The notes below the pieces were generated by a model. It had not been told where the DNA came from. It made no database searches and was given only the letters and a program-made list of their open reading frames with translations. From a virus (Duplodnaviria; Caudoviricetes), in IMG/VR virus record IMGVR_UViG_2922690425_000004, positions 64,001-128,000 of that record: DNA of 64,000 nt; one strand, written 5' to 3'. Below are positions 2-64,000 of the stretch, piece by piece (within the stretch, counting starts at the first letter, position 1; every line of letters starts with the position of its first letter). The translations under genes and the position numbers were made by a program.

Positions 2-118
2 TTAACTCTAAAACAATTTAATCAGATTGTACTGGAGCAATACATAGAATATAAACAGCATGGTGGATATAAGTCTTTTGAAGAGTATTACGCCTATGTT
101 CAGTCTAAAGGGTTATAA
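2..118 (+). CDS. 3' end of hypothetical protein (partial)
   Basis: Open frame ...GGYKSFEEYYAYVQSKGL*; TAA 116-118 is the left arm of a palindromic site. Confidence 0.6.
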   Translation, partial: LTLKQFNQIVLEQYIEYKQHGGYKSFEEYYAYVQSKGL

Positions 119-160
119 AACTGATATTTTACTGAAATTTATAGGGTAATTATGTACAAA

Positions 161-215
161 TCCAATATACAAAAATAAATAAACTATTGAATATAATGAA
201 ATGACGTGGTATAAT
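161..215 (+). promoter_or_regulatory. SigA promoter with upstream phage operator-like motif
   Basis: TTGAAT 187-192, 17 bp, TATAAT 210-215 with TG extension; TACAAAAATAAATAAA just upstream. Confidence 0.65.
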
Positions 216-255
216 AAACACATAAGATAAGTTAATACATAGGAGGCGGTTCACA

Positions 256-543
256 ATGGAATGGGATTATGAGCGCTCTGAAAGAATTAAGGCAGCTAAA
301 CAGGAGAGACTTGAACAAGAGAAGTGCGCGAAATATACAGAGGTCAAACTTGAGGGGACAGCAGCTATTCAAACAGGATATACTAAACTCGGTAAAAAAG
401 TTGTATTTGAATCTTGTATGGGGTTTTCGTCTCAAAGCAAGTACGGTGCTGGCACTTTAAGTGTTTATGAAGGAGACGAAAGAAAAATAGTTTTCACAAA
501 AGGATATCCATCTAAAGCTCTTGATTATATGATGAAACATTAA
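256..543 (+). CDS. Hypothetical phage protein
   Basis: AGGAGG RBS, 95 aa. Confidence 0.8.
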   Translation: MEWDYERSERIKAAKQERLEQEKCAKYTEVKLEGTAAIQTGYTKLGKKVVFESCMGFSSQSKYGAGTLSVYEGDERKIVFTKGYPSKALDYMMKH

Positions 544-624
544 AAAACAATCGAGACATAGTATAGTGCAAGTAACAATGTACTGTAACGATTTAAAATA
601 CTCATTTTATAAGGAGATGTAACT

Positions 625-909
625 ATGAATAATATGTTTCAGATTGATAGAATCAATGAATTACAAGGAATCAATACAAAAGAATTAAATATGTTTAGCT
701 TACATGAACTGTATGTTGATGGCGTTCCAATTGCTTATGTTCGTATAAATAATGAAAAGATTGAAGTTTTGCCATTTTTAAAATTTGCTGCTGAACCTTG
801 TAAAGCATTATTCGTAAATACGGAAGAATTTGGTGAAATGATTGAGGGGTATAGGGTTATGGATTGTTTGATGTACAATAGTTCGAATTTTTCAAATAAA
901 ACACATTAG
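625..909 (+). CDS. Hypothetical protein (single-gene cassette between sites 594 and 912)
   Basis: AAGGAG RBS directly after site. Confidence 0.75.
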   Translation: MNNMFQIDRINELQGINTKELNMFSLHELYVDGVPIAYVRINNEKIEVLPFLKFAAEPCKALFVNTEEFGEMIEGYRVMDCLMYNSSNFSNKTH

Positions 910-956
910 GATAAATGAGTGAATTTATAGAGATATAGAAGAGAGGTGGAGTATGA

Positions 957-1142
957 ATGATATTCCAAAAAACAAAATACTACCCAGTAGATGTGCAAAG
1001 AAGGATTATATACAACGATCCAGCAAAGCGAGAAAGAGAATGTAGCGTGGAGCGTGGTTATCGCGAGAAAGGAACTATTGGTATTAAGGGTGAGAGATTA
1101 AACATGTTTGATTGCTACAAACAGTTCGAAATAACTGTATAA
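957..1142 (+). CDS. Hypothetical protein
   Basis: GAGGTGG RBS; stop TAA overlaps site 1140. Confidence 0.7.
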   Translation: MIFQKTKYYPVDVQRRIIYNDPAKRERECSVERGYREKGTIGIKGERLNMFDCYKQFEITV

Positions 1143-1267
1143 AATTCTTGTTTTACTTAGAAACGAACGTATAAATATTCAACATTAAGAGTATATTACT
1201 CGAAATTAATGATAAATACATACGTATTAATGTATATTTATAAATAAATCAAAGGATAGTGTATTAT

Positions 1268-2506: not shown

Positions 2507-2730
2507 TGGCTCAACTCCTCATTTTGCTATCATAGCAATAGTATAAAAGAGTAATGTATGTATGTAAACATTTAGAGTTGTTATGAGAATAAAACCAGTT
2601 TTTTATAGTAAGGTGTTATTAAAAAAATAAATTGCCAATCAAGGTTCTGTATATAAAATTTTAGACACGTAGACACGTAGATCTAGTATAATGAGGAAAT
2701 GATAGATCATATAACAGGGGGTTGGGGATT

Positions 2731-3318: not shown

Positions 3319-3390
3319 AACATGGAACTCCATTAGTTAATCAACGTATATATGACAAAGATTTTAGATATAATAAAATGTTACTTTTAC

Positions 3391-4847: not shown

Positions 4848-4992
4848 TTTGTTTAATTCCTAAATATAAAAATAATTAAATATTGTAATCAATAATTATG
4901 TGTGATATAATAAACCTAACAAAAAGAAACGGCGTATTGTAACCAGTAGCACCGTAATGTAAGGGGTAAAACAACGATTTTATAAGAAATGA

Positions 4993-5774: not shown

Positions 5775-5815
5775 GTTTGAAATAAAACAGTTATTTTACA
5801 TGAAAAAATATTATT

Positions 5816-8018: not shown

Positions 8019-8312
8019 GTGAACAGCATGACTTTACGTAAGTGTAAGAATGAATTTTGTTCGGGAAACATTGTATCTGATTATATAGAAGCTGAATATT
8101 GTCTTAAATGCTATATGGATATGTTGAAATTTCTTCCCTTGTTTCACATACCAGTTGGAATTATGCCATATAAATCAACGAGACAGATGAGATACAATCC
8201 AAATGCATGTAAGATGAAATTTTGTAAGAATAAAGCGAGGCTAAGAGGTAGATGTTTTAAGTGTTATATCGAGTTTATGAAAAAGCAAGAATCTGAAATG
8301 AAAAGCCAATAA
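8019..8312 (+). CDS. Cys-rich hypothetical protein
   Basis: Two repeated C-x4-C..CxxCY units; stop overlaps site 8310. Confidence 0.65.
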   Translation: MNSMTLRKCKNEFCSGNIVSDYIEAEYCLKCYMDMLKFLPLFHIPVGIMPYKSTRQMRYNPNACKMKFCKNKARLRGRCFKCYIEFMKKQESEMKSQ

Positions 8313-8328
8313 AAGATTAATTTGACAA

Positions 8329-8970: not shown

Positions 8971-9008
8971 ATAAAACTATATTTTTATAAAGACAGGGGC
9001 AAAAAAAG

Positions 9009-9300
9009 ATGTTCGAATATAACAAGGCAGCTCAATTGTTAGAAGTGTGGAAAAAACATGATTTAGATAATGGATTTTATAAGGGTGTTCCTAACTATCC
9101 TACTAACACTCGATTCGTTAGTGAACTCAATCAAAAGATCGCTCAAGAATCTGAACGAATATTACTTAATGTGCTTGAGGGAAAACAGTCACGTTATCAA
9201 TCCAAAGGAAATACTTGAAAGTGTTATATCTAATTATGTTGCAGGTACAGATTATACTGCAAAAGAAGTAATGCAAATTATGGGTTTTAGAATAAAATGA
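9009..9300 (+). pseudogene. Hypothetical protein, probably one gene split by a frameshift
   Basis: ORF 9009..9218 and the tail of ORF 9070..9300 together fill the interval between sites 8972 and 9293. Confidence 0.45.
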
Positions 9301-9337
9301 TCCTTTTATTAAAAAAATAGAGTAGGAGAATAGGGCT

Positions 9338-10188: not shown

Positions 10189-10518
10189 ATGCACAATACG
10201 GAGAAAATGATTGAATTAAAAAATACTCTCGAAGGTCTATATGAACTAAAACAGGTGTATGACGGTGAAGGGTTAGCTTATCAGTTAAGGAAGGTAAATA
10301 AAGAAATTAAAAAGAATGAAGACGAGCTTTTAGAAGAGTTATCTGTTAAGTGGAACGCTTTTAACGAAGGTGAAAGGATAGAAATATTTGTGAAAGAATT
10401 ATTTTCAAATCAGACAGCAAAAAAATATTCTGTGTTAAGATGGGAAGAATTATCTTCCAGAGTTAAAAATGTGCTATTGCATTCTGAGATACGTGGCTAC
10501 TTAAATCAGTTAAAATGA
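10189..10518 (+). CDS. Hypothetical protein
   Basis: AAGGAG RBS; stop within site 10511. Confidence 0.7.
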   Translation: MHNTEKMIELKNTLEGLYELKQVYDGEGLAYQLRKVNKEIKKNEDELLEELSVKWNAFNEGERIEIFVKELFSNQTAKKYSVLRWEELSSRVKNVLLHSEIRGYLNQLK

Positions 10519-10543
10519 ATATTTTATAAGGAGAGATCGAAAC

Positions 10544-10720: not shown

Positions 10721-10745
10721 ATAAAAAGATTATTTTATTTTCATT

Positions 10746-11820: not shown

Positions 11821-11893
11821 TTCGATGGAATTCGGCTGATTGGAATAAAAGAAGTATTTGATAACAAAAAAAGAAGCGACCAAAAGTCGCAAC

Positions 11894-12645: not shown

Positions 12646-12891
12646 TGTCATCAGCAATAGGGAAATGTTACAGATAAAATAAGTCTTTTAATAACAATAA
12701 TGCACATAACAACGGAGGAATAAATATGTTTACAGTAACCAATACAGAAACGAAGAAATACCTTAGAGCAGATTGGGAAGCTGAGCGCGGTCAACTATAT
12801 ACGCATGACGTTGATCTAGCTGTCAAGTTTGAAAGTTGGCATGATGCTGAAGATATTACTGAAGCAACAGAACAAGTAGTACCTCTGTCTA

Positions 12892-13638: not shown

Positions 13639-13680
13639 TTAAAAGGTTTATTTTATTCATAAAATGAAGGGAGTAACAAT

Positions 13681-13943: not shown

Positions 13944-14150
13944 ATGAAAAAATCAGTATTATGTTCTATCATTATCGTTTTTCACAAGTTAATTAACATT
14001 GAATTTGTAAAAGAGGGCGATGATTTATGGGCAATTGAATATAATTATAAAATTTTTTCGATGCCAGATAAAATTATAGCAAAATGGAAGGTTAAACAAG
14101 GTTCTTTTGTTTATCGCAAATTAATGCAAACACAGGCTCATGTAAAATGA
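13944..14150 (+). CDS. Hypothetical protein
   Basis: Between sites 13913 and 14143. Confidence 0.6.
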   Translation: MKKSVLCSIIIVFHKLINIEFVKEGDDLWAIEYNYKIFSMPDKIIAKWKVKQGSFVYRKLMQTQAHVK

Positions 14151-14191
14151 CTGTTTTACCTTGAAAATATTTTAAGGAAAGAGGTACTCAT

Positions 14192-17186: not shown

Positions 17187-17549
17187 TTTAGATATTTATG
17201 GATGGCAGTTGAAATGTAGTTTTAATTAAAAAGATAGGTGAAATGCAGAATGTATTGTGAGAAGTGTGGTAAGAAACTAGAGGATGTGTTGGAACACGTT
17301 AAGCACATCCTCCATGAGTGCAATGGATAAAATACATACAAGTAAGGGGAAGCAGCAATAGTGGACGAGAAGGCAAGAGAAGCACTTAGGAAGGCTGTAT
17401 ATCTAATTGGTATTGGGGAAGGGTTGAAGGCAAGCGAATTGCTGATTGATCTCTGCTGAATCAACCTCTGAACGATGCAGCTAAATAACCGCACCACAAA
17501 GTTTGTTTTATAGTGAGTAAAATATAATTTTTATTAAAAAGCCTGCCAA

Positions 17550-21394: not shown

Positions 21395-22714
21395 GTGACG
21401 ATATTGAAAAAAGAGAGAAGCGAATTAGAACAACGTCTAACTGAAATTGTTGAATCAAATAAAAATGATAAGAAAAGCATTTTAAAAATTAATGATCGTT
21501 TGAGTGCATTGGGAGTTCCATACGGAGAATATAATAAAATAATAATCAACACAAAACTGTTACAAGATACTGATATTTCACTTATATGTGTGATTACAGA
21601 AGTATTGCAAAGTGTACTTGGTAATACAATAATTGATGTAATGGACTATTTTAGCCATAATGAAATAAACGAAGCAAAAGAAAACATTAAATTGATCTAT
21701 CAAAAAGATTATTTAAAACTGCCTATTACTTTTGAAGACGTAATACAAATAGATGAAAGATCGTATTCTACAAAGATTACTATACAGATGTTGGTACAAA
21801 TGTTCAATTCTCAATTAATTAATTATGACCCTCGTTCCCAACGTGGTATGAGATACAAAGGTAATACTCGCGATGGTGTAGTGGAGTCACCCATTGTTAA
21901 CCAAACGAGTGTAAAAAAAATTGCTCAAAAAATTCTAAATCAAAGCTATCTTGCAGATACAATTACTTTTAATGTATTCGCATACGAGCACCAACCTGTG
22001 ACATATGATAAAGAAAATTATACTCTCACAATAAACGAAAAAAGTATAATTTCCATACTCGATGGATATCATCGTTTTCAAGGTCAAATTAAAGCTTTGA
22101 ACACAAAAGAAGACATTGATTTTGTATCTCCTCTTTCAATAAGAGTATATGACAACACCACCGCAGAACAATATTTTGGTCAAATAAATACCATAAACCC
22201 TTTGTCCAAGGAAAGAAGAAAAGAACTACAAGCGGAAAAGAAGTCAGACAACGTGGTAAAAGAATTACAAAATAATCCAAATAGTGAACTAAGAGGGATT
22301 AGAATTGCTTCTAGCAGAAAGGCAAATAAAGAAGTTGGTCAACTTACAACTTTCAGTATTTTGTCATTCGGAATTGAAAAAACATTTAACCCAACTAATT
22401 ATGTTGAGTACAGAGAAGTCTCAGAATATTTAATTAAATTTTTTGGGTATCTTATTGGCTTTTATTACGACGAATTTATTGAAAATCCCAATAAACACAC
22501 TTATATCAACAATCCTTTTATGTTCCTTGGGTATACGGTTATCGCTAAACGTTTTTACGATGAGAATAGAGAATTGAAAAGTTTGAAGAGTGTTGTAGAT
22601 GAGATCAATTTTGAAGATAATGATTTGATTGAAATCCTTGAATCGAAGAGAATTTACGACAATAAGAAATTACAGGGAGAACTTATAAAATATTTTGAGC
22701 GCACTATAAAATAA
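21395..22714 (+). CDS. DndB/ParB-like (DGQHR-type) protein, SPbeta YopQ-like
   Basis: YDPRSQRG, ILDGYHR, F.QINT motifs; directly upstream of YopR-like gene. Confidence 0.75.
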   Translation: MTILKKERSELEQRLTEIVESNKNDKKSILKINDRLSALGVPYGEYNKIIINTKLLQDTDISLICVITEVLQSVLGNTIIDVMDYFSHNEINEAKENIKLIYQKDYLKLPITFEDVIQIDERSYSTKITIQMLVQMFNSQLINYDPRSQRGMRYKGNTRDGVVESPIVNQTSVKKIAQKILNQSYLADTITFNVFAYEHQPVTYDKENYTLTINEKSIISILDGYHRFQGQIKALNTKEDIDFVSPLSIRVYDNTTAEQYFGQINTINPLSKERRKELQAEKKSDNVVKELQNNPNSELRGIRIASSRKANKEVGQLTTFSILSFGIEKTFNPTNYVEYREVSEYLIKFFGYLIGFYYDEFIENPNKHTYINNPFMFLGYTVIAKRFYDENRELKSLKSVVDEINFEDNDLIEILESKRIYDNKKLQGELIKYFERTIK

Positions 22715-22731: not shown

Positions 22732-23721
22732 ATGAACCGTATATATGGAGACAATCTATATAATCCAGATATAAAACAAAGGTTTTTAGAGGGATATAGA
22801 AAAGCAACAAGAGGTAATTATGAAAGTAAATTAAAACGTGCAAGCAAGGTTGAAATGAAATACAACAAAGATTTGTATAATTTTAGTTTGTCCGAAATCG
22901 AAGAGGTTATGTATTTGTTGGCTCCCAATAAATTGAGTTCGGCAACTATATATGGATCGGTAATTAAAAAATACATCGAGTGGGCTATTTCTCAAGATCT
23001 TAGAGCTGATAATCTGAATCCACTTGATGTTGTTAATGGTAAGGAATTTTATGAAAAGTTTATTCCAAAACAAATTCTTATAAGAGATGACGATCTTGAG
23101 TTAGCGCTTGGTAAAATTGATAGCAATAGAGATATTGTTATAATTCAAAGTATATTTGAAGGCATTCTAGGACGTGAATGCTCCGAAATCAGGAACTTGA
23201 AAAAGCAGGATATAAATCAAGCCAATGGGACAGTAAAACTTACAAACGTTGGACGATATGGTGAAGTGGAAGAACGAGAAATAGAGATAAGCGAATTTTT
23301 ATTGGAAGCAATGTTTAGAGCCGATGAGGAGACAGCTTATAGCTCAAATTTCGGTGAAGGGAGTCTCAGTAATAAAAAAATCAGTAGCCTTAAAGACAGT
23401 TCTTATATTATAAAAAGCACTAAAGACGAAAAAGTTAAACAGACCCTTATATCTCAAACTATCACAAAGTTTGCTACAAAGCTAAATATGGATAGATTGT
23501 CTCCAGTAGACATAAGGAATTCAGGAATGCTAAAAATGGCGAAAGATTTTTATGTTGATAATAAGGGTAAACTGGAGAGAAGCGATATACATGAAATAAG
23601 CAAAAAGTTTAATGTGGGCAGTAAAGATGGAGAGATTTTCTATACAACAATGTACACAAAAGACTTTTTAAATATAGAAACAATAATAAGAATATATCCA
23701 GAAGTACTTGAAGTAGAATAA
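22732..23721 (+). CDS. Tyrosine-recombinase-fold lysogeny repressor, SPbeta YopR/MrpR-like
   Basis: YN.DIK.RFL, E..YNKDLY.F, YIEWAIS, FEGI.G...SE, P..I..SG match YopR as recalled; HxxR His replaced (PVDIR). Confidence 0.8.
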   Translation: MNRIYGDNLYNPDIKQRFLEGYRKATRGNYESKLKRASKVEMKYNKDLYNFSLSEIEEVMYLLAPNKLSSATIYGSVIKKYIEWAISQDLRADNLNPLDVVNGKEFYEKFIPKQILIRDDDLELALGKIDSNRDIVIIQSIFEGILGRECSEIRNLKKQDINQANGTVKLTNVGRYGEVEEREIEISEFLLEAMFRADEETAYSSNFGEGSLSNKKISSLKDSSYIIKSTKDEKVKQTLISQTITKFATKLNMDRLSPVDIRNSGMLKMAKDFYVDNKGKLERSDIHEISKKFNVGSKDGEIFYTTMYTKDFLNIETIIRIYPEVLEVE

Positions 23722-26327: not shown

Positions 26328-26959
26328 ATGAGTAAAAGAATACTTTTATCAAGATAGACAGTTACCAAAAGGCAATACACAATACATATTTCCAATAAAG
26401 ATAAGGGAGAAGATATGGTATTTACGAAAATGAATTCAATGGAAAGAAAGTAAGACATCTCAATAATTACAGAACTATTTTTATACCAGAATATCACAAA
26501 ACACTAAGAGGAAGGGGATATGAAGGATTTGTATATGAACACATATATATTGCAGAGGACATGATTGGACGTGAATTGAGACTTAAAGAAGTTGTACACC
26601 ATCTTGACCTTAACAAGCAAAACAATCATCCAAAAAATCTAATTGTACTTGAGAGTTCTCAACATGCTAAATTGCATGGTTGGCTGAAAAGAATCGATTT
26701 CAATAGTACAGTTAAACATCTTTATTGCTCTCCTTATTGCGAGGTTTGTGGGAAGATACTTAAATCTCATCAGCAAAAAACATGTTCTAGTAAATGCGGC
26801 AGTATATCAAGAGGAGTTAATCAGCGTAAGTTGGAATGGCCTAATCCAGAAGAGTTATCTCAAATGATGAACACAATGAGTTGGGTTGCAATTGGTAGAA
26901 AATATAAGGTTAGTGATAACACAGTTCGTAAGTGGGCTAAAAAGTACAATATTTTATAA
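26328..26959 (+). pseudogene. HNH homing endonuclease, 5' part apparently frameshifted
   Basis: GFVYEH..IAE..IGR.L...EVVHHLD.NK.NN...NL; frame open from ~26405 without a start; upstream ATG 26328 needs frameshifts. Confidence 0.6.
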
Positions 26960-29152: not shown

Positions 29153-30154
29153 ATGTCAACATTAGATATTTTTAATCCACAAGTTTCAGTAGTTGCAAGA
29201 GGGCTAGAAGGCAAAATCATCACAATTTATGGTAGTAACAACTTGGGCAAAACTAAGCAAGCTACACGTTTTAAGAAACCTTTTTACCTAGGATTTGAAA
29301 AAGGACTCAATGCAATTGCTGGTGTTCCATTTGCTCCAATCAACAACTGGAGCGACTTTAAAAAGGTAAATAAACAATTAACTCACAAATCCACGGTAAG
29401 TAAAGCGCGAGAAGTATACCAGACTATTATCTTTGATGAAGTTGAAGCATCAGCTCGTTACTGCGCTAAGTATATTTGCGATAAATATGATTCAGATACA
29501 ATTGCATCTGGACGAGATGGGTTTGGTCTTTGGAAAGAGTATGAGACAGCATACTGGGAAGAGATTGATAAGTTGATTGGAGCAGGATTCACAGTTGTTT
29601 TCATTGCCCACCAAACTGAGGATAAAGAAGGAAAGTTCTGGCCTAAAGGTGACAAGAGAGCACTTGCTCCAGTTATCGACAATAGTGATATCGTGGTTTA
29701 CCTTCGTTCCAATGGGACTGATGAAAAAAACCAAGTAATTAAATCTTCTGCTTTCCTTGCTGAAACAGATAAATTCTTTGCTCGTAGCCGCTTTGATTAC
29801 ATCCAAACTGGGCTAAGAGAATTTACTGCTGAAGCATTGGAAGAAGCTATTATCAAAGCAATCGAAAAACAAGAAGAAGTAGAAGGAATTAAGGCTGTTA
29901 CTTATGAGGAGCAAAAAGAGACGCTTAAATCCCAAGATCTGAACTTTGAAGAGTTGAAGACAAATATCATTGCTGCGGGTAGATTTCTGCATGAATGTGG
30001 CAAAGGAGATACAGTTACAGATATCATCGAGAATGGACTTGGAAAAGGTAAAAAGGTTACCGACTTTACAAAGAACCATGTTGAGATGATGGTTGGTGTA
30101 TTGGATGAATTGAATGACGCTGTGCGAGAATTTAAAGAGTCACAGCCGGAATAG
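29153..30154 (+). CDS. AAA_24/Sak4-like ATPase (SPbeta YorG-like)
   Basis: IYGSNNLGKT Walker A, FEKG, TIIFDE Walker B, VVFIAH. Confidence 0.82.
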   Translation: MSTLDIFNPQVSVVARGLEGKIITIYGSNNLGKTKQATRFKKPFYLGFEKGLNAIAGVPFAPINNWSDFKKVNKQLTHKSTVSKAREVYQTIIFDEVEASARYCAKYICDKYDSDTIASGRDGFGLWKEYETAYWEEIDKLIGAGFTVVFIAHQTEDKEGKFWPKGDKRALAPVIDNSDIVVYLRSNGTDEKNQVIKSSAFLAETDKFFARSRFDYIQTGLREFTAEALEEAIIKAIEKQEEVEGIKAVTYEEQKETLKSQDLNFEELKTNIIAAGRFLHECGKGDTVTDIIENGLGKGKKVTDFTKNHVEMMVGVLDELNDAVREFKESQPE

Positions 30155-32059: not shown

Positions 32060-32087
32060 TAAAACCTGTATTTTACAAGGAGGATAA

Positions 32088-33165: not shown

Positions 33166-33326
33166 CTTTATCATCCTTTCATATTTGGAATACACATTTA
33201 TCATAGTGGATGTTTTACCATAAGTAAACAATAAAATGAATTAATTGTAAATGATGATGAACATAATGTGAACATCATATTAAATTTAATTAAAATTGAT
33301 ATTTCATTAGGAAAGGAGAGATTTAT

Positions 33327-33518: not shown

Positions 33519-33549
33519 ATAAAATCGATCATTTATCAAGAAGTAGATA

Positions 33550-35989: not shown

Positions 35990-36670
35990 TTGAGTAAAAA
36001 GTTAAAAACTATTATGGGTGACGAATTTGGAATTACTGCACTTGATGGTATACCAGTAGTAAGTAGTAGAAAAGTTGGAGAAATATTTGTAAAACGACAC
36101 GATCATGTACTCAGAGATATTGCAAACATTCAAAGTTCACTCCCCAAAATTGGGGAGTCAGATTGGGACATTAATTTTATAAAATCGTCCTATAAAAATG
36201 ATCGAGGAAAAGAGTATCCAGAGTTTTTGTTGACTGAAAATGGATTCACACTTTTGGCAATGGGATTTACAGGTGAAAATGCAATTAAATTTAAAATAAA
36301 ATACATAGAGAAATTCAACGAAATGAAAAAGTTCATTCAAGAGCGACAACTGGCACGAATTGAATATCCAGCATTAACAACGATGATTAAAATGTCTCAC
36401 GAAAATCCAAATCCGTTTCATTACAGTAATGAGGCAGACATGATAAATAAGATAGTACTCGGGATGACTTCAAAAAAATTCAAAGAGAAACATAGTCTAA
36501 AGAAACATCAAGGAATCAGAGATTTTATGAGTCATCAGCAAGTGGAAGCGATTGTTAAATTACAACAAGTAGATGTTGGACTAGTAGCATCAATTAAAGA
36601 TATTTCTGGACGAAAAAAAATATTAGAGGACTATTATTATAGAATCTACGGGAAGCTATCCTTGATTTAA
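35990..36670 (+). CDS. Rha-family phage regulatory protein
   Basis: SSR.V...F.KRHDHVLRDI, GFTLLAMGFTG..A.KFK..YI..FN.M. Confidence 0.9.
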   Translation: MSKKLKTIMGDEFGITALDGIPVVSSRKVGEIFVKRHDHVLRDIANIQSSLPKIGESDWDINFIKSSYKNDRGKEYPEFLLTENGFTLLAMGFTGENAIKFKIKYIEKFNEMKKFIQERQLARIEYPALTTMIKMSHENPNPFHYSNEADMINKIVLGMTSKKFKEKHSLKKHQGIRDFMSHQQVEAIVKLQQVDVGLVASIKDISGRKKILEDYYYRIYGKLSLI

Positions 36671-36708
36671 AATCGCGATTTAATTGAAATTATCTCGTTT
36701 AGAAAAGA

Positions 36709-37896: not shown

Positions 37897-38130
37897 TTAA
37901 TTGCCACCTTTAGTGAGAGTTAGTATTTATATTATAAACCTTCTCATTAAATAAAGCACAAATAATTGAATAAAAGAGGACTTTTATTGAGTCAAAATTA
38001 AACAACAAAGTTTTGATTCTTTTGAACTTTATCTTTCAAAAAGCTGGAAAAATGGAGCACTCTTCCTAAGTCGAACAAAAACAACAGAGAAAGACCACCT
38101 TATCAAAAAGGTGGTCTAGATTAAAAAATG

Positions 38131-39793: not shown

Positions 39794-39968
39794 AGTATAT
39801 CCTCCTTGATATTGGGTTTATATAGTAAGCTGGCCAGCATTACTTCCCAAAAAAACTTACTGAAAAAGTATAATATGAATAAAAATATATAGCAAGGAAA
39901 AGTTTTGTTGCTATTTACTAGTATAAAACATAGATTTTACCATAATACATACAAAAGGATGATAAAGT

Positions 39969-40974: not shown

Positions 40975-41007
40975 CTAAAAGAGTTCTTTTATTAAGAAAG
41001 GGGAGAA

Positions 41008-41225: not shown

Positions 41226-41405
41226 ATGAGAAAAATATCAGAAGCTCAATACAAGAAAATAATAAAAATGTTTAACGATCAAGTAAATAAAGAAACGAGC
41301 GCGATGACTATCGTGTTATCATCTTGGGGAAGAAATTCTGAATTAGTAAAATTGGAGAATGAAGCAAGCGCAAAGAAAGAGGAGTTCATTAAACTGTTTC
41401 AGTAA
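41226..41405 (+). CDS. Small hypothetical protein (59 aa, not in ORF track)
   Basis: AAGGAG RBS; stop overlaps site 41403. Confidence 0.6.
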   Translation: MRKISEAQYKKIIKMFNDQVNKETSAMTIVLSSWGRNSELVKLENEASAKKEEFIKLFQ

Positions 41406-41432
41406 AAGGCACGTTTTATAAGTAGGAGGAAA

Positions 41433-43685: not shown

Positions 43686-44057
43686 ATGGATAAGATTATT
43701 GCTTCAGAACAATTGCTTGACAAGATCATAAATATTGACCCTCCTTTGAAAGCTGCCATGAGCGACAAAAGCACAAAAACTATTGTTATTAACAAACTAA
43801 GTGAAGGATTTGAGGGTATTGTAGCTCATTATCCGCATTTGATCGATGACATCCAAAGAAGGATTGTTGAGTATCATAAAAACAAGGGGAGGGATGGGAA
43901 GATCACTGATTTCGTGTCACTTGTTGATTGGTACAGTATGAGCTTGTTAGAAAAACCTGCGGAGTGGTGGGATAGCACAGGAGAATACTTTAATTTAAGA
44001 ATGAATGAAGTTATCAATATGTTTCTTATGGCTAGATTCAATTTTGGATTGGTATAA
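43686..44057 (+). CDS. Hypothetical protein
   Basis: GGAGG RBS; between sites 43626 and 44055. Confidence 0.75.
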   Translation: MDKIIASEQLLDKIINIDPPLKAAMSDKSTKTIVINKLSEGFEGIVAHYPHLIDDIQRRIVEYHKNKGRDGKITDFVSLVDWYSMSLLEKPAEWWDSTGEYFNLRMNEVINMFLMARFNFGLV

Positions 44058-44274
44058 AATGAACATTTTAATATAAAGGGTGACAAAAATTCTAATTACT
44101 TATCTTAATACTGCTTTGGGTATGTTGGCGGCGATGGCAATATTATACCCACCTTGTCGCCTCATAAGTTTCACTAACAAGTCAAAATTCTCTCATAAAA
44201 CATATTTCTATGTAATGATGGGGTCATTTATTTTAATTGCAGCGCTACAGAGATTTTAGATTTTTAAGAAAGAG

Positions 44275-45265: not shown

Positions 45266-45303
45266 TACTAAACTGATAAAATTGGGCTTTTAGAAGGAAT
45301 GAA

Positions 45304-45885: not shown

Positions 45886-46084
45886 TTTAGAATTGCTTCA
45901 GCAGATTTATAAAGTAGCAAGCGCCCTAGATCTTGAATTATGTACTGTATTGAATCGTGGCAAAAGTACTATGAGTGGTGCAGAGTATGAAGAGTTAATG
46001 GAATTGATGATTGAAGTAGAAGATTATTTAGAAGCTAAAGATTTGTAAAAGCATCGTTTTACCAAGATAGGAGAATACATAATA

Positions 46085-47450: not shown

Positions 47451-48236
47451 TTGGTGGTGATAATATTGGAGATGACGCAAAGAAAAGTAAGAAAAAAATT
47501 GCGTGGGAAAATCGGTAGAATCAGACATGCATTACAATTGGTCACTATTTTATTTTATACGCTAATACTATTGATTTTAGCATTATTGATATCTATTTGG
47601 ATTGAAGGTATTATACCCGGTTTGCCCAGTATCATCTCTGTCATAATCCCGTACATAGGATACTTTGTTCTTGTTCCTTTACTCTATCCTTTGAAATCGA
47701 GATATTACATAAGACGGATCATAAAAGAAGAGTATGAAAAATTGAATGGAAGGAATTTAATACATTATACCGACCACTTATTTCCTTACGAAATTGAAGA
47801 GGCTGAAAGAACTGGGATAATTAGATTGATTGCAAATAGTAGCGCACGTTCAAATTATAATTTTAAATTCAGTGATGCAACTAAGAAATTTGTTTGGTTT
47901 CACCCTTCTCGAACTGATGAAAACAAGGAACCTAAATTTAACTCTTTCTGGTACTCTCATTATAGCGAATCAGATCCAAGAGACTATAAGATAATAGTTA
48001 ATCCAATGAATGTAGATATGAACAGAATATTTATTAGACCTATTGATGGTGCAATAGTAATTGAAGATGATTATACAGGTGAAGCGAATATAGAAAAAAC
48101 ATTTAATTGGTACAATAGTAAGATATATTTTTGGAGGTCGTTGTGTGTGTCGCCAATCACATTCGGTCTTGTCATGTTTATTGGTATTAAGCAACTTATG
48201 GGAAGTATTATCGATAGGAAACGCGCAATAAAATAA
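47451..48236 (+). CDS. Membrane protein (3 TM with soluble domain)
   Basis: Hydrophobic N- and C-terminal segments. Confidence 0.7.
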   Translation: MVVIILEMTQRKVRKKLRGKIGRIRHALQLVTILFYTLILLILALLISIWIEGIIPGLPSIISVIIPYIGYFVLVPLLYPLKSRYYIRRIIKEEYEKLNGRNLIHYTDHLFPYEIEEAERTGIIRLIANSSARSNYNFKFSDATKKFVWFHPSRTDENKEPKFNSFWYSHYSESDPRDYKIIVNPMNVDMNRIFIRPIDGAIVIEDDYTGEANIEKTFNWYNSKIYFWRSLCVSPITFGLVMFIGIKQLMGSIIDRKRAIK

Positions 48237-48265
48237 CACTTTTACTAGGAAACGAGGTGTAGCAA

Positions 48266-50204: not shown

Positions 50205-50723
50205 ATAAGTAAAGAGTGGCTTGATAGTGATGACGTACTTGAAGAATACTATGACTCAACTAAGTATGCATTAATTGAATTAGGTGTACAATTAATTGAT
50301 CCTAAGAAGATCATTGCTTTATCACGGGAACTAAGAGAAGTGAAATTAGAGAGACTTCGAATGAAAATAATAAATAATGGTTGGCAGGACGAGTCTCCAA
50401 CGGATTTTAATCTCATAAAAACATTGGATGGAAATTATGTTGTAGATGGTGGAGGCAATCATAGAGCCTATCTCAGTAATGAACTTGAAATTAAAGAAGT
50501 GAAAGCTAGAGTGTGGTCTCACGTTGAACTTAATAAATTATCGAAAGAAGAGTTTGATCAATATAAAATATATAAGGATGAAATTTCTGGATTCTATAAA
50601 CAATTTAAAATTTATAAGATTAGAGGAGACGAAGAGAAACAATTCGAATTTTTACATAAAGCTGGGAAATTAGAGGAGAAGCTTAAAGCATTTCTTCTAA
50701 AAATTTATAACGGATCATTATAA
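50205..50723 (+). CDS. ParB/Srx-like N-terminal domain protein (probable ATA start)
   Basis: IDPKKI, Y.VDGGGNHR; frame open from 50205 after AAGGGGGG RBS. Confidence 0.65.
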   Translation: MSKEWLDSDDVLEEYYDSTKYALIELGVQLIDPKKIIALSRELREVKLERLRMKIINNGWQDESPTDFNLIKTLDGNYVVDGGGNHRAYLSNELEIKEVKARVWSHVELNKLSKEEFDQYKIYKDEISGFYKQFKIYKIRGDEEKQFEFLHKAGKLEEKLKAFLLKIYNGSL

Positions 50724-50755
50724 AACAAATATTTTATAAAGAAAAAGGAGCATAT

Positions 50756-51825: not shown

Positions 51826-51867
51826 TCCAATTAAAATCTTTCTTTTACTAAGAATGGAGACTTAGGT

Positions 51868-52017
51868 ATGCAGAACGAGAACAAGCATATGGTTGAAGAG
51901 TGCTATGATGCTTTAGAATGGGTCATAATTCAATTTAAAAAAGTTCTATCTGGAGAAGTCGCAGGGAATGTACAAGAAAGCCTATCCTATGCTGAATCAA
52001 TCCTTAAAAACAGATAA
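51868..52017 (+). CDS. Small hypothetical protein (49 aa, not in ORF track)
   Basis: GGAG RBS; fills interval between sites 51832 and 52015. Confidence 0.55.
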   Translation: MQNENKHMVEECYDALEWVIIQFKKVLSGEVAGNVQESLSYAESILKNR

Positions 52018-52043
52018 AAGTTTACTTTGATCAAAAATGGGGG

Positions 52044-53088: not shown

Positions 53089-53331
53089 CAGCAGGATATA
53101 CACTAAGTCTAGAAGAGGTCAGGAAGATCATTGTAAAACACCTCAATGAAACGGGTGTCTATATTCCAATGGATGATTCATTCATTATGGTATTGGATGA
53201 ACACGATCAATTAATCGACAACACAAATGTTTTACAAGTATACCATGAAATTGAATAAAATCTTCATTTTAAACGATATACATAACTTACCGCTGAAATA
53301 GTATATACTCATTTGATATACTGTTAAATGG

Positions 53332-54168: not shown

Positions 54169-54173
54169 AGGGG

Positions 54174-57358: not shown

Positions 57359-57391
57359 GTAAAATATAGTTTTTACTCAGATTATTTTTTT
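57354..57391 (+). terminator. Terminator-like hairpin built on a palindromic site
   Basis: TCTGAGTAAAA-TATAGT-TTTTACTCAGA followed by TTATTTTTTT. Confidence 0.6.
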
Positions 57392-57469
57392 GATGAAGCT
57401 TGTTTGAAAGAAGACATAGCAGCTATTAGATTTACTAAAAGTAGAACTATAAAGTTATAAAATTAGCGG

Positions 57470-57502
57470 TTGACAACATTCCAATATACAAATATAATTA
57501 AA
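57470..57502 (+). promoter_or_regulatory. Consensus SigA promoter overlapped by phage operator
   Basis: TTGACA 57470-17 bp-TATAAT 57493; TACAAATATAATTAAA 57487-57502. Confidence 0.75.
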
Positions 57503-57527: not shown

Positions 57528-57770
57528 ATGCATGAAGAGCAACCTGCAAATCTTATTCCTACGGAGAATATAGATGAAGCAACTCATGTTTTTATTGCAG
57601 ACAAGAAATTCAACATCAAGACCACGGTGGGAAAGTTTTATAAATTATACAGATGGGAGGCAAACGCAAGTTCATGTGGTATAGCTGAAGCATATATTAT
57701 TGATGATGAAGGAAAAGATTCAACGGGGTTCATGTATTATTGCAAAGCTAAGTTTTATATACAAAAATAA
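57528..57770 (+). CDS. Hypothetical protein
   Basis: GAGGTG RBS. Confidence 0.7.
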   Translation: MHEEQPANLIPTENIDEATHVFIADKKFNIKTTVGKFYKLYRWEANASSCGIAEAYIIDDEGKDSTGFMYYCKAKFYIQK

Positions 57771-57881
57771 AGAATAATACATATAAGAGGTTGACCGTAG
57801 ATTAATCATAGCCAACAACCTCTCAAACTCGTAAACAAGCATGTAGAAGTTGGATTTTATAAGAATAAAGGAGGCTACTAA

Positions 57882-58655: not shown

Positions 58656-58701
58656 GTAATAGGATAAAAGAAGAGTTTTACCAAGAAAGGAGAAAAGTAA
58701 A

Positions 58702-58983
58702 ATGTTTGCTGAAATCAGTGAAGAAGGCGTCAGTTTCTATGAGCCAAACATCCGATACAACGAGGAAAACAAGTTAATTCTAGACGGTGTCTGCTGGGTT
58801 AAAGACGACCAATTAGATTGTTACAATTGGGAAAATGAAGATATGTTATGGATCTTAGACACTATTCCTGCAAGTGATGATGATATTCCAGAAGCTAGAT
58901 ATTATTGTCACAACGTTAACCAAAATGCAACTGGGTGGGTACTCCATAATCAGGTGAAATTTAATTTGGAATTGGCAGAGTAA
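58702..58983 (+). CDS. Hypothetical protein
   Basis: Between sites 58665 and 59002. Confidence 0.7.
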   Translation: MFAEISEEGVSFYEPNIRYNEENKLILDGVCWVKDDQLDCYNWENEDMLWILDTIPASDDDIPEARYYCHNVNQNATGWVLHNQVKFNLELAE

Positions 58984-59038
58984 ACAACTCTAAGAAGTTT
59001 ATAAAAATATACTTTTACATAGAGGAGAATAAAATATA

Positions 59039-59683: not shown

Positions 59684-60211
59684 ATGAATGAAATGAGATT
59701 TTTTAAGATTAAACAAGGAACAAAATATCATGAAGCAGTGAAACAACACTTAACCTTACTTCCAAAGTGGAAACCAATTTATGCTAAAGTAAGTGAATTG
59801 CTCGATGAGAAAATCACTTTAATGGTTCAAGCCCCAGACTATCTTCAAATAGAATACTCAGAACTTAAAAAGGATGAAAACAAGAAGATTTTCAAAAAAG
59901 ACGGTACTTTAAAAGCAAACTCGAAAAAGGCAAAAGAAATTGAAGCTGCTTACAAAGAGATTGTCAAAGAAGCTGGACTAGAGAAGTTTGAAAGTTTGGG
60001 ACATATCAATTTCTGTTACTGTGTAATGCGTTATCATGGAGAAACATTAAAAACCTTTAAGACTAGTGGCCATGAACTCTATTATGAGGCAGATTTCGAT
60101 CTAGAAGAGAGAACTAAAGAATCAAATTCAGGAGATGGTCTAGTAATTCCGATTACAGAAATCGAGCATCAAGAAAAATATCTTGAAGAAATTAAAAAAC
60201 AGTCTGCGTAA
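59684..60211 (+). CDS. Hypothetical protein
   Basis: Stop overlaps site 60209. Confidence 0.75.
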   Translation: MNEMRFFKIKQGTKYHEAVKQHLTLLPKWKPIYAKVSELLDEKITLMVQAPDYLQIEYSELKKDENKKIFKKDGTLKANSKKAKEIEAAYKEIVKEAGLEKFESLGHINFCYCVMRYHGETLKTFKTSGHELYYEADFDLEERTKESNSGDGLVIPITEIEHQEKYLEEIKKQSA

Positions 60212-60230
60212 AACTACTATTTTATAAGGA

Positions 60231-61044: not shown

Positions 61045-61283
61045 ACCATATATAAGAAGTGATATAAAAAGTAGAAATATTGAATTATATGTCTTTAAAC
61101 TAACCTGAACTGAGGAGTGATTAGATATGGCAAGTATCAAAGTCATAAACAAACAGACAGGAAGGGAGAACAGGCATCTCACCCACAACTTTATGAAAGC
61201 AATTGACAATAACCTTAAAATTACACTACCTGAAAAATTCAAAATAAGTATTCAATAAAGTAGTATCAAGGGGTGATTAAATC

Positions 61284-62921
61284 ATAGTCTGGAAGCAAAA
61301 GAAACCCAAAATTCCGTTTGAGCCTTATGACAATACATACAGTAAACTCGCTAAGATTAATGGAATTGAAGATATAGATCAATTTCTAAATCCATTGTCT
61401 AATGTAATATGTAGCCCATATTTACTCAAAAATATCGATCCATTAGTAACACGAATAGTCCTTGCAATTAGAAACCATGAAACTATAACTATATCAGGAG
61501 ATCCAGACTTTGACGGGATAACTGCTCTAGCAACCCTATATAAATATCTTAAGAATTTTACCGATGATGTCAATTATGTGTGTAATGAACGAAGTGAAGG
61601 CCACTCAATAAATAATCTAATTTCTACTGTCTCAGATCAAACAAGATTATTTATTGCTGTTGATAGTTCATCAAATGATTTATGGTCAATGAAAGAGTTG
61701 ACAGATAGAGGCATTGACTGTTTGGTAATCGACCATCACACAGTAACCGTAAATAATCCATATATTACATTGGTTAATCCTCAACAAGAAGGATGTAAGT
61801 ATCCAAATAAAAATGCTTGTGGTGGATTGCTTGTATTCAAGGTTTGCGAGGTAATTGATGATTACATGGATACATATTATGCAAACCAACTATCTGACTT
61901 GCCGGGATTTTCATTAATGGCAGACATGATGTCAATGATGGAGTTAGAGAACAGATATTTTGCGAAACTATCCTTAAAGGGGTTGCGACATGCAGGATTA
62001 AAAGCGCTATTTTCAGCTATGAACTTTGACTTAAACAACCTTTCAGCAGCAGACTTTCTTTATGGCGTAAGTCCTGCTGTTACCGCTGCTACAAGAGCAG
62101 ATAATATTCAATTAGCAATAGACTTCCTGATGTGTGATGAAGACTCACCAGAGATTAAAACGATAGTAAAAGAATTGATCAAGTTAAATGAAAATCGTAA
62201 AGTAATCCAAGCTGAAGCATTAGTTAGATTGAAGCCCTTGGTTAATAAAAACGACAAAGTTGTTATTGTTATTGATCATACTCTTGGAAAAGGGATGAAT
62301 GGACTTGTAGCGCAAGAGCTATCTAGAACATTCAATAAGCCAGCAATTGTTCTTGGAGAAGGAGCTAATGAAGATACATATGCAGGTAGCTTCAGAGGAT
62401 TAGAGGACTTTTCGATGCTCGACTTGCTAAACGAATGTGAGAGTGTAATTTATACTGGTGGACACCCTGCGGCTGGAGGGGTGCAGATACTTAAAACGGA
62501 TTTTGATGTATTGCGTCAAGAGTTGAATGAGAAGCTTTACGAATTTGAGCCTGATGATACTGTATATTATGATTTACAATTCGATATTAGAGAAGTTAAT
62601 GAAAAATTAGTTCAACACCTATCAGAGTTTTATCGGATTACGGGAAACGAATTTAAACAAGGTCAATTTAAGATTTCTGGATTATTTGTTTCAGATAAAA
62701 AACTGATCGGTAAGTTAAATAATACAGTTAAGTTTGATTGTGACAAACTCCAGCTTATGAAGTTTAAGACTGACGTAGATTACTATAAAAGCGTTCCTGT
62801 CTTTAGTGAAATTGAAGCAATTGGAACATTAAATATAAATGTATGGAAGGTTTATAGACCAAAATTCAAAGTAACTAAAACAGTCCAGTTATTTATAGAA
62901 GAATATAGAGAAACAAAATAA
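61284..62921 (+). CDS. recJ: RecJ-like ssDNA exonuclease (DHH; SPbeta YorK-like), probable ATA start
   Basis: GDPDFDG, VDS, IDHH, VNP, GGHPAAGG; frame extends to 61284 (W..GI..FLNP). Confidence 0.85.
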   Translation: MVWKQKKPKIPFEPYDNTYSKLAKINGIEDIDQFLNPLSNVICSPYLLKNIDPLVTRIVLAIRNHETITISGDPDFDGITALATLYKYLKNFTDDVNYVCNERSEGHSINNLISTVSDQTRLFIAVDSSSNDLWSMKELTDRGIDCLVIDHHTVTVNNPYITLVNPQQEGCKYPNKNACGGLLVFKVCEVIDDYMDTYYANQLSDLPGFSLMADMMSMMELENRYFAKLSLKGLRHAGLKALFSAMNFDLNNLSAADFLYGVSPAVTAATRADNIQLAIDFLMCDEDSPEIKTIVKELIKLNENRKVIQAEALVRLKPLVNKNDKVVIVIDHTLGKGMNGLVAQELSRTFNKPAIVLGEGANEDTYAGSFRGLEDFSMLDLLNECESVIYTGGHPAAGGVQILKTDFDVLRQELNEKLYEFEPDDTVYYDLQFDIREVNEKLVQHLSEFYRITGNEFKQGQFKISGLFVSDKKLIGKLNNTVKFDCDKLQLMKFKTDVDYYKSVPVFSEIEAIGTLNINVWKVYRPKFKVTKTVQLFIEEYRETK

Positions 62922-62951
62922 AAAGACATATAAGAACGGAGAAATATACAT

Positions 62952-63173
62952 ATGAAATTTTACGGAATCGCAGTAAACACACAAAACAAAAACGTGGTAA
63001 TTAACAATCTACCAACTGACTATCTTGGAGCAGTAAAAGAGGCAAAACGAATCGCGACTAAAGAAGGATTAAAGTTTCAATTTGTTAAGCCTGCCGTGAA
63101 TGGACAAAAAGAAGGGGCAACGCTCACGAAATTTGCAGCACAACGCAAGAATCGTAAGTCTGTAAAACGGTGA
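62952..63173 (+). CDS. Basic hypothetical protein
   Basis: GGAG RBS. Confidence 0.65.
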   Translation: MKFYGIAVNTQNKNVVINNLPTDYLGAVKEAKRIATKEGLKFQFVKPAVNGQKEGATLTKFAAQRKNRKSVKR

Positions 63174-63177
63174 TTTT

Positions 63178-63417
63178 ATGCGTATTAAAGTGTCCGATCA
63201 TGCGAGAACAAGATGTGAGCAAAGTAATGTTGGAGTGGGTCGCCTCATTAAAGAGGTGGCTGCCATTCCTAATATTGTGGGAAAGATTAGCTGGAAGACT
63301 AAATTTGGAGTAATAGTTGTAGAGAGGGTTAATGAAGGATTGCTGCTTATCAAGACGTTTATCGCTCGATTTAAGTATAGAGGTAAACAATATCACAAAG
63401 GTTGTAGAACAATTTAA
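63178..63417 (+). CDS. Hypothetical protein, possible RelE/BECR-like fold
   Basis: VSDHARTR...LLIKTF. Confidence 0.5.
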   Translation: MRIKVSDHARTRCEQSNVGVGRLIKEVAAIPNIVGKISWKTKFGVIVVERVNEGLLLIKTFIARFKYRGKQYHKGCRTI

Positions 63418-63473
63418 AGGGTGAAGAATTGTGAGCAAAAATTACGATCAAATACAAGTTTGATGAGAAGTGA

Positions 63474-63746
63474 GTGTGTATCCAATTGACTAAAAATAGA
63501 AATCTTTTGATTACTATTGAAGAAGTTATAGAGAAAAAGAATCCATCTCAACCATACATGGCCGGGGTTCATGTTGCTCAAACGACATCAATTTACACGG
63601 AAATAGATCATAACTATGAAATTGTAAATATGATTGTTGATAATACGGTTATTCATGAGGAAGAAAAAGAAAGATTTGTTAAGGTTAGTAGTGAAGATAA
63701 GGATATTTTTAAGCGAATATTGAATAAATATCTCAAAATAAAATAA
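63474..63746 (+). CDS. Hypothetical protein
   Basis: Between sites 63448 and 63739. Confidence 0.6.
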   Translation: MCIQLTKNRNLLITIEEVIEKKNPSQPYMAGVHVAQTTSIYTEIDHNYEIVNMIVDNTVIHEEEKERFVKVSSEDKDIFKRILNKYLKIK

Positions 63747-64000
63747 TGCTTTTACTGGGATGACAAATTAGGAGGAATGAGTTTGAAGTATATCCGTCTA
63801 CCTAGGGGATCAGGAAAGCCAGACACCATTATGAATTTAATCAAAGAAAAGATAGAAAAGGAGGAATGTTTCATCGTGTTAAATGATATGAATTATCTTG
63901 ATATCACCAAACGTTTGGAGAAGTTACGCAAGGATCGAGCAAAGATTGATCGGGAAATATATGACCTAGAAAATATGAAAAGCAGAAAGCTATCTGAAGA

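Follow-up and report, generated by a model that had tools for sequence, protein, structure and literature searches.

In T4-type phages, PeSL cassettes consist of short repeated intergenic elements flanking small non-essential genes in variable regions, and the boundaries of insertions, deletions and replacements between close relatives coincide with the element (PMC2839356, PMC4122927). Each PeSL element carries a strong promoter and a terminator stem-loop, and the elements recombine with one another by homology and yield mini-circles. Acinetobacter plasmids carry dif modules, in which separate sets of genes are each enclosed by such sites, present in large number (PMC6449649, PMC13141974); these plasmid sites (pdif), like dif itself, are bound and cut by the host XerC/XerD (or XerS/XerH), have two different arms and allow modules to move between plasmids. 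Integrons are arrays of promoterless open reading frames (ORFs) separated by attC sites, which are imperfect inverted repeats of 57–141 bp folding in single-stranded form. A tyrosine recombinase, IntI, is encoded close by, with attI and the promoter Pc adjacent to it where the array begins; the cassettes are mobile units of an ORF and an attC, vary in order and have a site on either side once inserted. Here we describe a dyad, TAAAA-N6-TTTTA, that recurs at the gene junctions of a phage placed among the SPbeta-like phages. The window analysed is a stretch of 64,000 nucleotides, corresponding to positions 64001–128000 of G000, a 160,162-bp provirus from IMG/VR, and its sites appear to bound fixed slots whose genes are replaced between relatives.

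As with PeSL, replacement boundaries coincide with the dyad sites, but these are only 16–28 bp long, contain neither a sigma-70 promoter nor a stable hairpin, have junction-specific centres and separate genes whose order is never shuffled. The arrangement of two 11-bp arms around 6 bp (11-6-11) is that of dif, and the AAAA/TTTT inner arms resemble those of difH and difSL (PMC5357621). Unlike pdif sites, however, the dyads have symmetric, phage-specific arms and a separate centre for each slot, they track a phage gene module (sro), and their modules stay put. With integrons they share arrays of promoterless ORFs, recombination-site-like repeats and a nearby tyrosine recombinase gene, whereas the provirus has no attI/IntI platform, the sites remain unfolded, insertions do not duplicate them and cassette order is fixed. 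None of the close systems (PeSL, Acinetobacter dif modules and difH/difSL) joins symmetric arms, per-slot conserved centres and fixed order, and no prior description of the TAAAA-N6-TTTTA motif was found in the searchable literature. In engineered recombinase-mediated cassette exchange, lox or FRT sites are given heterospecific spacers, so that only sites with the same spacer exchange and unlike sites give no deletion. That arrangement likewise combines common inverted arms with spacers differing by position, and it predicts the conserved centres, islands of identity and colinearity reported below; it is engineered and involves two sites, whereas here there are ~60 natural sites with putative catalysis. 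The stoperators of cluster A mycobacteriophages such as L5, reportedly described by Brown et al. in EMBO J in 1997, are also said to be short repressor sites, present in dozens of copies where long operons have short gaps between genes, but to be asymmetric, 13 bp long, transcription-oriented and the same sequence everywhere. To our knowledge, junction-specific conserved centres and an association with breakpoints have not been described for stoperators.

The window contained 37 perfect sites compared with 1.25 expected from dinucleotide shuffles (shuffle maximum, 6), along with 42 one-mismatch copies, ~26 of which lay outside crude coding sequence calls. An earlier note on this DNA had counted 35 perfect copies; the seven example coordinates it quoted were all present, and its observation was borne out. 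The whole provirus contained 56 perfect sites, of which the 64-kb late cluster accounted for 7, the window for 37 and the stretch beyond the window for 12; a control in which the same pattern was read backwards gave 4. The N6 spacing was specific, with 347 copies in 1.7 Mb of related loci versus 19 for N5, 34 for N7 and 13 for the reversed control. ComK-type boxes, which have the form A4-N5-T4, were ruled out because the N5 spacing was not enriched. The purine and pyrimidine flanks described earlier are real (R at position 0 in 43 of 48 sites and Y at position 17 in 41 of 48), and beyond them A-R-G-A occurs at +3 to +6, mirrored less strongly by TCT on the upstream side. The transcription-oriented consensus was R-TAAAA-(B-N4-V)-TTTTA-Y-W-A-R-G-A, and the full dyad, approximately TCT-N2-R-TAAAA-N6-TTTTA-Y-N2-AGA, spans 28 bp, matching the tyrosine-recombinase-site geometry that had been proposed; the outer TCT/AGA was clearer in SPbeta than in the provirus. 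The sites are thus confirmed as a real, non-random DNA-level dyad element at gene junctions. Mirrored flank and centre positions paired at the level of independence in both the provirus and SPbeta, the frequent arm variants TTTGA and TTTCA disrupt pairing, the 28-nt site RNAs had a mean folding energy of only −1.8 kcal/mol, and no Rfam family matched the sites. Since the arms vary independently and no hairpin is selected, the site looks like the DNA target of a dimeric protein, for which it is a candidate.

Almost all sites lie at gene junctions, as had been claimed: 40 of the 56 in the provirus are intergenic and 8 are on a gene edge (48 in total), although only ~9% of the genome is intergenic. 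Relative to the stops of ORFs of at least 40 codons, 7 of the 37 perfect window sites supply the stop through the left-arm TAA, 7 contain a stop inside the site and 13 have one at most 40 nt upstream. The intervals 10511–10722, 51832–52015 and 58665–59002 contain one ORF each, also as stated before, within a long operon. Promoter-like matches were not enriched (79 versus 82.7 in shuffles), only two strong promoters were found between 40 and 60 kb of the window, and terminators were very few in 20 kb with about 20 sites. The segment from 40.5 to 57.4 kb forms one long operon with a terminator-plus-strong-promoter pair at each border, and most sites are therefore internal to operons, separating a stop codon from the ribosome-binding site (RBS) that follows. 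A promoter or terminator role was ruled out by this lack of enrichment, with site 57360 as the lone exception. In the region 57352–57498, this site is embedded in a hairpin with a 13-bp stem followed by a T-run, with a perfect TTGACA-17-TATAAT promoter ~90 bp further on, and is a junction site doubling as an operon boundary.

No close relatives were found with the MrpR homologue as the query, and two mosaic relatives (G002 and G020, hereafter G2 and G20) were obtained through the AAA_24 protein and a 505-aa protein; their homologous 80–100 kb were compared with the window. The alignable part of the window amounted to 24 kb (29 blocks) and 35 kb (35 blocks) in the two comparisons, corresponding to 38–54% of the DNA. 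Among the 122 ends of homology blocks, 39 lay at most 12 bp from the edge of a matching site, many of them at 0 or ±1. Junctions bearing a site served as breakpoints in 36 of 57 cases, whereas those that had none did so in 19 of 80 (odds ratio 5.5, p = 4e-6), and 21 of 50 ends within site-bearing junctions fell at most 2 bp from a site edge versus 5.8 expected. The earlier note had proposed testing whether breakpoints fall in the 6-bp cores: replacement breakpoints were indeed enriched at the sites, but at their outer edges, with the whole site including the centre common to both phages. Junctions within conserved modules of several genes seldom had a site, whereas junctions next to variable genes often did.

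Of the 37 perfect sites of the window, 28 had a counterpart with an identical 6-bp centre at the colinear place in the first relative and 34 in the second (76–92%). Regarding sites inside blocks of 76–89% identity, the 16-mer was identical in all seven (42 of 42 centre positions), beside ~72% identity in the 12 bases on either side. A non-circular test, starting from the neighbouring protein, showed that next to proteins 54–88% identical, half of the centres were unchanged and several others differed by one base. Exact shared 16-mers numbered 19 with one relative and 29 with the other, and 12 in each comparison were islands, defined as identical 16-mers with both 60-bp flanks at background identity; these counts were obtained by ungapped comparison, and nearby indels may inflate them somewhat. 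The shared ORFs were fully colinear (54 of 54 and 78 of 78, respectively), and no translocated paralogues were found within the provirus genome. In nine simple insertions, at most one end abutted a site, the other end lay at an RBS or elsewhere, and no site was duplicated. Conserved order and insertion without site duplication indicate that the units are fixed slots with replaced contents rather than circulating cassettes of an ORF and a site. The gain, loss and shuffling of cassettes proposed in the earlier note were therefore not upheld, nor was its integron-like label, since the sites are too short and unstructured for attC.

The same element is present in well-studied phages of this family. 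SPbeta, rebuilt over 50,000–134,416 for a motif scan, had 29 perfect sites in 84 kb, again at gene junctions, and the dyad is the most abundant repeated element of the model phages SPbeta and phi3T. When a 30-kb stretch was compared with Goe13, SPbetaL8, SPbetaL4, SPR and phi3T, 30–37% of homology breakpoints fell at most 14 bp from a site centre, a zone comprising 2% of bases and ~9.5% of intergenic bases. At base resolution, left homology ends were most frequent where the site begins and right ends where it finishes, on its outermost base in each case. Depending on the phage, the same site with the same centre had a different upstream gene, a different downstream gene or both, as for TAAAAGATGCATTTTA between yoqC and yoqD, and the pattern of identical sites between differing neighbours was likewise present. 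Position-specific cassette replacement at the sites, as judged from these alignments, is well supported. It is also highly probable that the sites form a family-wide scaffold recognised by a protein, with junction-specific conserved centres at which relatives replace genes in register.

Among 24 related records, the motif was enriched in 20 (11–61 copies versus 0–7 for the control). Each of the 20 motif-rich records had homologues of SroE and SroF, which the four motif-poor ones lacked, and 18 of the 20 also had SroD; the four records without the whole sro module had the motif at background (1–4 copies). The clade G016–G019 (L073–L089), with genomes of 150–170 kb, shares the AAA_24 replication module (56% amino acid identity) and has neither SroD, SroE, SroF nor the dyad. 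No variant motif was found in relatives with few perfect copies, this clade being simply without the element. The confinement of the motif to phages with the sro module argues for a phage factor; 33 further records provided no additional case informative on the binder. A SroD/YopP homologue is encoded just upstream of the window (G000 55121–56170; 28% identical, E 4e-31). SroD/YopP homologues aligned to XerA keep the catalytic tyrosine-recombinase set (Arg, Lys, His-x-x-Arg, His and Tyr). Such retention is difficult to reconcile with a purely accessory repressor, given that these phages use a serine recombinase for integration. In Cell Host Microbe in 2023, Brady et al. are said to have described SroD as an auxiliary repressor and the repressors as binding multiple sites. 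SroE has been described as a second repressor whose mode of action is unclear (bioRxiv 2025.11.27.690993). A third tyrosine recombinase, in the late/structural region (L098 2945–3946, G000 31945–32946, minus strand), shows 58–98% identity among SPbeta-like phages and retains R..K..HxxK..H..Y; a perfect dyad site (G000 31915) lies 15 bp past its stop. This recombinase was ruled out as the partner of the motif, since two records without the motif encode it and two rich in the motif do not.

We favour the reading, at a rough probability of 45%, that a dimer-recognised scaffold has its same-centre sites paired by a recombinase, most likely SroD, resulting in slot-wise exchange. In SPbeta-like phages, a dimeric phage protein would recognise the dyads, which together would make up a fixed scaffold spanning the early and accessory operons. 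Each junction has its own 6-bp centre, kept between relatives even beside unrelated genes. Relatives would exchange the genes between sites at fixed positions, using the sites as crossover points and leaving the order unchanged. A phage recombinase, for which SroD/YopP of the sro module is the best candidate, would pair identical-centre sites of two co-resident genomes and exchange strands at the borders between arm and centre, and the unlike centres within one genome would prevent deletions. Pairing by a recombinase is favoured because it alone explains the common arms, position-specific centres, 16-bp islands, colinearity and intact orphan recombinase together; we infer the identity of the binder and an exchange that is catalysed rather than homology-driven. 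A full natural counterpart of recombinase-mediated cassette exchange, in which SroD/YopP would swap slots through ~30–60 heterospecific sites with a 6-bp "address" and deletions and rearrangements within one genome would be prevented, is a good deal more doubtful.

Several results weigh against the favoured reading. The 56 centres in the provirus include 0 identical pairs versus 1.9 expected, a difference that is not significant. Some insertions used microhomology at the RBS, and some swaps were not site-bounded, among them a recent exchange of a fragment that turned phi3T into phi3Ts. Hybrids of phi3Ts and SPbeta made in the laboratory had ordinary homology at 15 of 16 junctions (bioRxiv 2020.05.06.055103). 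Co-occurrence does not separate SroD from SroE or SroF, and two records with SroE/F but no detectable SroD, which are AT-rich or incomplete, showed weak enrichment (6–8 intergenic sites): G009 had 6 intergenic sites versus 0.84 expected, with 3 for the control pattern, and G013 is only 72% complete. SPbeta YopP has Lys at the second catalytic Arg. Finally, breakpoints at site edges and islands would also be expected if an essential operator filled the spacer between stop and RBS and exchange proceeded by short-homology annealing, for which the Sak4-like protein encoded by the phage is a candidate. Centre uniqueness and avoidance of palindromic centres in the provirus were also considered and discarded as statistically too weak.

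The last point belongs to the main alternative, which we regard as less likely than the favoured reading, namely that the dyads are operator or roadblock sites of the sro module. A repressor dimer (SroE/YopQ, or a non-catalytic SroD) would bind the ~60 junctions, keeping the early operons of the lysogen silent or punctuating them; the link to mosaicism would be secondary, with essential sites surviving replacements and providing short identity for Sak4-type annealing. The exact co-occurrence of the motif with SroE and SroF homologues (20 of 20 versus 0 of 4) fits this explanation, as do the concentration of sites in early operons directly before RBSs, the dyads just upstream of the described repressor element SPBRE at the SPbeta aimR, yorE and yosX promoters, and the position of window site 116 before a SroF-box-like repeat. 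The report of SroE as a second repressor with an unclear role (bioRxiv 2025.11.27.690993), the 11-bp centre-to-centre spacing of the inner arms, which suits a helix-turn-helix dimer, and the RBS microhomology in some insertions point in the same direction. However, an uncontacted spacer would not be expected to be 100% identical beside ~72% identical flanks, nor to persist as 16-bp islands; repression does not predict the scarcity of sites in conserved modules and their abundance around variable genes; and the intact catalytic set of SroD is left unexplained. The ten ChAP-seq peaks of MrpR, all at SPBRE (PMC10516654), exclude SroF as the repressor concerned but not SroE or SroD. Exchange by a recombinase and binding by a repressor are not mutually exclusive.

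The remaining explanations are far less probable. Integron-like mobile cassettes, in which a circle of an ORF and a site would be excised and reinserted by a phage tyrosine recombinase, would account for the site geometry, the many single-ORF intervals and the breakpoints at sites, and a candidate recombinase is present. This explanation is nevertheless very improbable given the perfect colinearity, the lack of paralogous or translocated cassettes, the insertions described above and the absence of an attC-like fold; moreover, two genes match Phage_integrase (PF00589) above the family cut-off, and neither of them (G000 55.5 kb and 32 kb) is within the arrays or associated with an array head, while the third match, below the cut-off and the only one within the arrays, is the MrpR-like repressor gene itself. 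We consider it equally improbable that the sites act in polycistronic early mRNAs as a translational operator, processing site or weak attenuator upstream of the RBS. Their constant position between stop and RBS, their presence on the transcribed strand of long operons in every case and the extension of site 57360 into a terminator-like hairpin are compatible with such a role, but the perfect dyad symmetry without compensatory changes, the pairing-disrupting variants, the weak minimum free energy and the lack of an Rfam family are not, and the breakpoints and islands would be left unexplained. Least probable of all, and almost certainly wrong, is the identification of the sites with SPBRE, the operator of MrpR (YopR, SroF). 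The window does encode an MrpR homologue, and SPBRE is the only repeated element described for SPbeta (PMC10516654); like the dyads, it recurs within each genome of this phage family, its binder (a putative one for the dyads) has the fold of a tyrosine recombinase, and some dyads adjoin SPBRE promoters. By contrast, SroF binds as a monomer to an asymmetric A-tract box of 24–26 bp (26 bp in phi3T; bioRxiv 2025.11.27.690993) in ~10 copies at promoters, whereas there are 29–61 dyads per genome at gene junctions. The ten MrpR ChAP-seq promoters of SPbeta share the de novo consensus CAAAWAATATGTATA instead of the dyad, several of them have no TAAAA-N6-TTTTA within two mismatches, and the 29 SPbeta dyad sites are not ChAP-seq peaks. 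As these promoters share a different motif, the dyad is a second and much more abundant element, and SroF is excluded as its binder because its known operator differs and its peaks lie elsewhere. The provirus has its own box, with the consensus TATACAAAAATAAWTAAATA, at about six promoter-like places upstream of −10-like boxes; the element resembles the SroF/MrpR operators known from SPbeta and phi3T and is probably its master-repressor box.

The comparisons show that the accessory genes of these phages occupy fixed, address-bounded slots and are replaced slot by slot, including slots of anti-defence genes such as Gad1 in SPbeta relatives. The sites provide a predictive map of where new accessory genes will turn up, they give the long-standing "linker sequence" view of how phages evolve by modules a concrete mechanism that can be tested, and they offer a candidate function for the conserved, unexplained recombinase SroD/YopP or the second repressor SroE. 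Address-coded exchange looks like an undescribed way of building phage mosaic genomes. If exchange is indeed enzyme-catalysed and centre-specific, it would be a dedicated, programmable route to phage mosaicism, would reveal what one of the conserved core genes in a model phage does and would be a ready-made set of tools for exchanging cassettes at many sites in engineered Bacillus phages. Arbitrium signalling, the discovery of anti-defence genes and large serine integrases are the fields in which SPbeta and phi3T serve as model temperate phages.

Junction sites and other features of the window. Positions are window coordinates unless marked G000. Six letters after "perfect" give the centre; "one-mismatch" denotes a one-mismatch site. 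HSP, high-scoring segment pair.
Feature	Position	Strand	Observation
Perfect, CTGATA	116..131		Same 16-mer in both relatives, left flank alone homologous; SroF-box-like repeat follows at 168
Perfect, TACTCA	594..609		16-mer in G2 with right flank alone homologous; island in G20
Perfect, TTCTTG	1140..1155		G2 and G20 homology begins 4 bp ahead of site
Perfect, CCAGTT	2590..2605		No same-centre partner in either relative
Perfect, TGTTAC	3374..3389		Same centre at colinear place in both relatives, outside any HSP
Perfect, CAACGA	4967..4982		G2 homology stops 9 bp past site; island versus both relatives (ungapped flank test)
Perfect, CAGTTA	5783..5798		Same centre in both relatives, outside HSPs
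Perfect, GTTGAA	6729..6744		Island in G20
One-mismatch (TTTGA arm)	8310..8325		G2 homology begins at first base, G20 one base earlier
Perfect, CTATAT	8972..8987		99%-identical G2 block begins exactly at first base
Perfect, TGATCC	9293..9308		G2 block begun at 8972 stops exactly at last base
Perfect, TGAATA	10511..10526		Same centre in both relatives; with 10722 brackets a single 58-aa ORF
Perfect, AGATTA	10722..10737		G20 homology begins at first base
One-mismatch	11846..11861		Homology with both relatives begins 1 bp ahead
Perfect, TAAGTC	12675..12690		Kept inside 96% G20 block; stretch deleted in G2
Perfect, GGTTTA	13640..13655		G20 homology begins at first base
Perfect, TGACTG	14143..14158		G20 homology begins 2 bp ahead; island in G2
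Perfect, TATAAT	17518..17533		16-mer 100% identical inside 76%-identical G2 block
Perfect, GAATAC	26333..26348		Same 16-mer in both relatives, flanks diverged
Perfect, CCTGTA	32060..32075		Homology with both relatives stops inside right arm
One-mismatch	33291..33306		G2 block begins 2 bp inside site
One-mismatch	33520..33535		G2 block begun at 33291 site stops at last base
One-mismatch	36668..36683		G2 homology begins at first base; orthologous sites differ by one centre base
Perfect, GAGGAC	37971..37986		Island in G2
Perfect, CATAGA	39924..39939		67%-identical G2 block begins at first base; 16-mer identical
Perfect, GAGTTC	40976..40991		G2 block begun at 39924 stops 1 bp past site
Perfect, GGCACG	41403..41418		564-bp G20 insertion directly after; far insertion end without site
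Perfect, TGAACA	44055..44070		G20 homology begins 1 bp ahead
Perfect, TTGGGC	45277..45292		G20 homology begins 5 bp ahead
Perfect, GCATCG	46046..46061		99% G20 block begins 1 bp ahead
Perfect, TAACAC	48229..48244		G20 block begun at 46046 stops 1 bp past; next 2.5 kb replaced in G20
Perfect, CAAATA	50721..50736		G20 homology resumes 1 bp ahead
Perfect, TCTTTC	51832..51847		Island in G2; with 52015 brackets one 49-aa ORF
One-mismatch	52015..52030		G20 block stops 8 bp past site
Perfect, GTTCAA	52832..52847		1.4-kb G20 insertion stops 6 bp ahead of site
Perfect, TCTTCA	53256..53271		Left border of ligase-primase module; G2 homology begins 5 bp ahead
Perfect, TATAGT	57360..57375		Right border of ligase-primase module; 13-bp terminator-like hairpin; 4.5-kb G20 block stops at last base
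Perfect, TTTGAA	58301..58316		Island in both relatives
Perfect, GAAGAG	58665..58680		G20 block begins 2 bp inside site
Perfect, ATATAC	59002..59017		G20 block stops 8 bp past; 245-bp G20 insertion there without second site
Perfect, CTACTA	60209..60224		Island in both relatives
Perfect, CGGTGA	63163..63178		16-mer 100% identical inside 81-83% identical blocks
Perfect, TAATGC	63739..63754		Homology with both relatives stops 1 bp past site
SroF/MrpR-box-like repeat TACAAAAATAAWTAAATA	168..190	+	Distinct from junction sites
TATACAAAAATAAWTAAATA copies	168-190, 8391-8413, 57760-57782; G000 59889, 60772, 141578		
SroE/YopQ-like protein (DndB/ParB-like), candidate site binder	21395..22714	+	Pfam PF14072, E 1.4e-7
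MrpR/SroF/YopR-like master repressor, tyrosine-recombinase fold	22732..23721	+	PF22822 MrpR_N_CB, E 2.8e-24; 25% identical to SPbeta YopR, E 5e-24
Sak4-like AAA_24 annealing protein, candidate catalyst of short-homology exchange	29153..30154	+	PF13479, E 7.8e-38

The window has a G+C content of ~33%, and nearly all genes are on the plus strand. Its weak DNA matches were to the Bacillus phages SPBc2, SPR and Goe11–14; these matches, together with the gene content, place the element among the SPbeta-like phages, where the window corresponds to the early/accessory "cluster III" of SPbeta. The gene for the MrpR/SroF/YopR homologue directly follows the SroE-like gene, and other products include KilAC and Rha antirepressor-type proteins, an SSB-like protein, an ATP-dependent ligase, a primase and a RecJ-like nuclease. 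On the minus strand, an ORF of 386 aa (38633–39793) has the exact length of SPbeta AimR and is 99% conserved in G20; it had no Pfam match at E <= 0.01 and is possibly a divergent signalling receptor. At the border of the late cluster, an 853-aa ORF on the minus strand (L097 2094–4655, G000 52094–54655) has the size and position of the SPbeta single-subunit RNA polymerase YonO, for which it is a candidate. The ~590-bp ORF-bearing segment at 26382–26976 has a counterpart in G2 (30391–30469 of the rebuilt sequence) that resembles, by eye, a tRNA gene with the anticodon CAT, making this an allelic slot occupied by a protein gene in the window phage and by a putative RNA gene in the relative.

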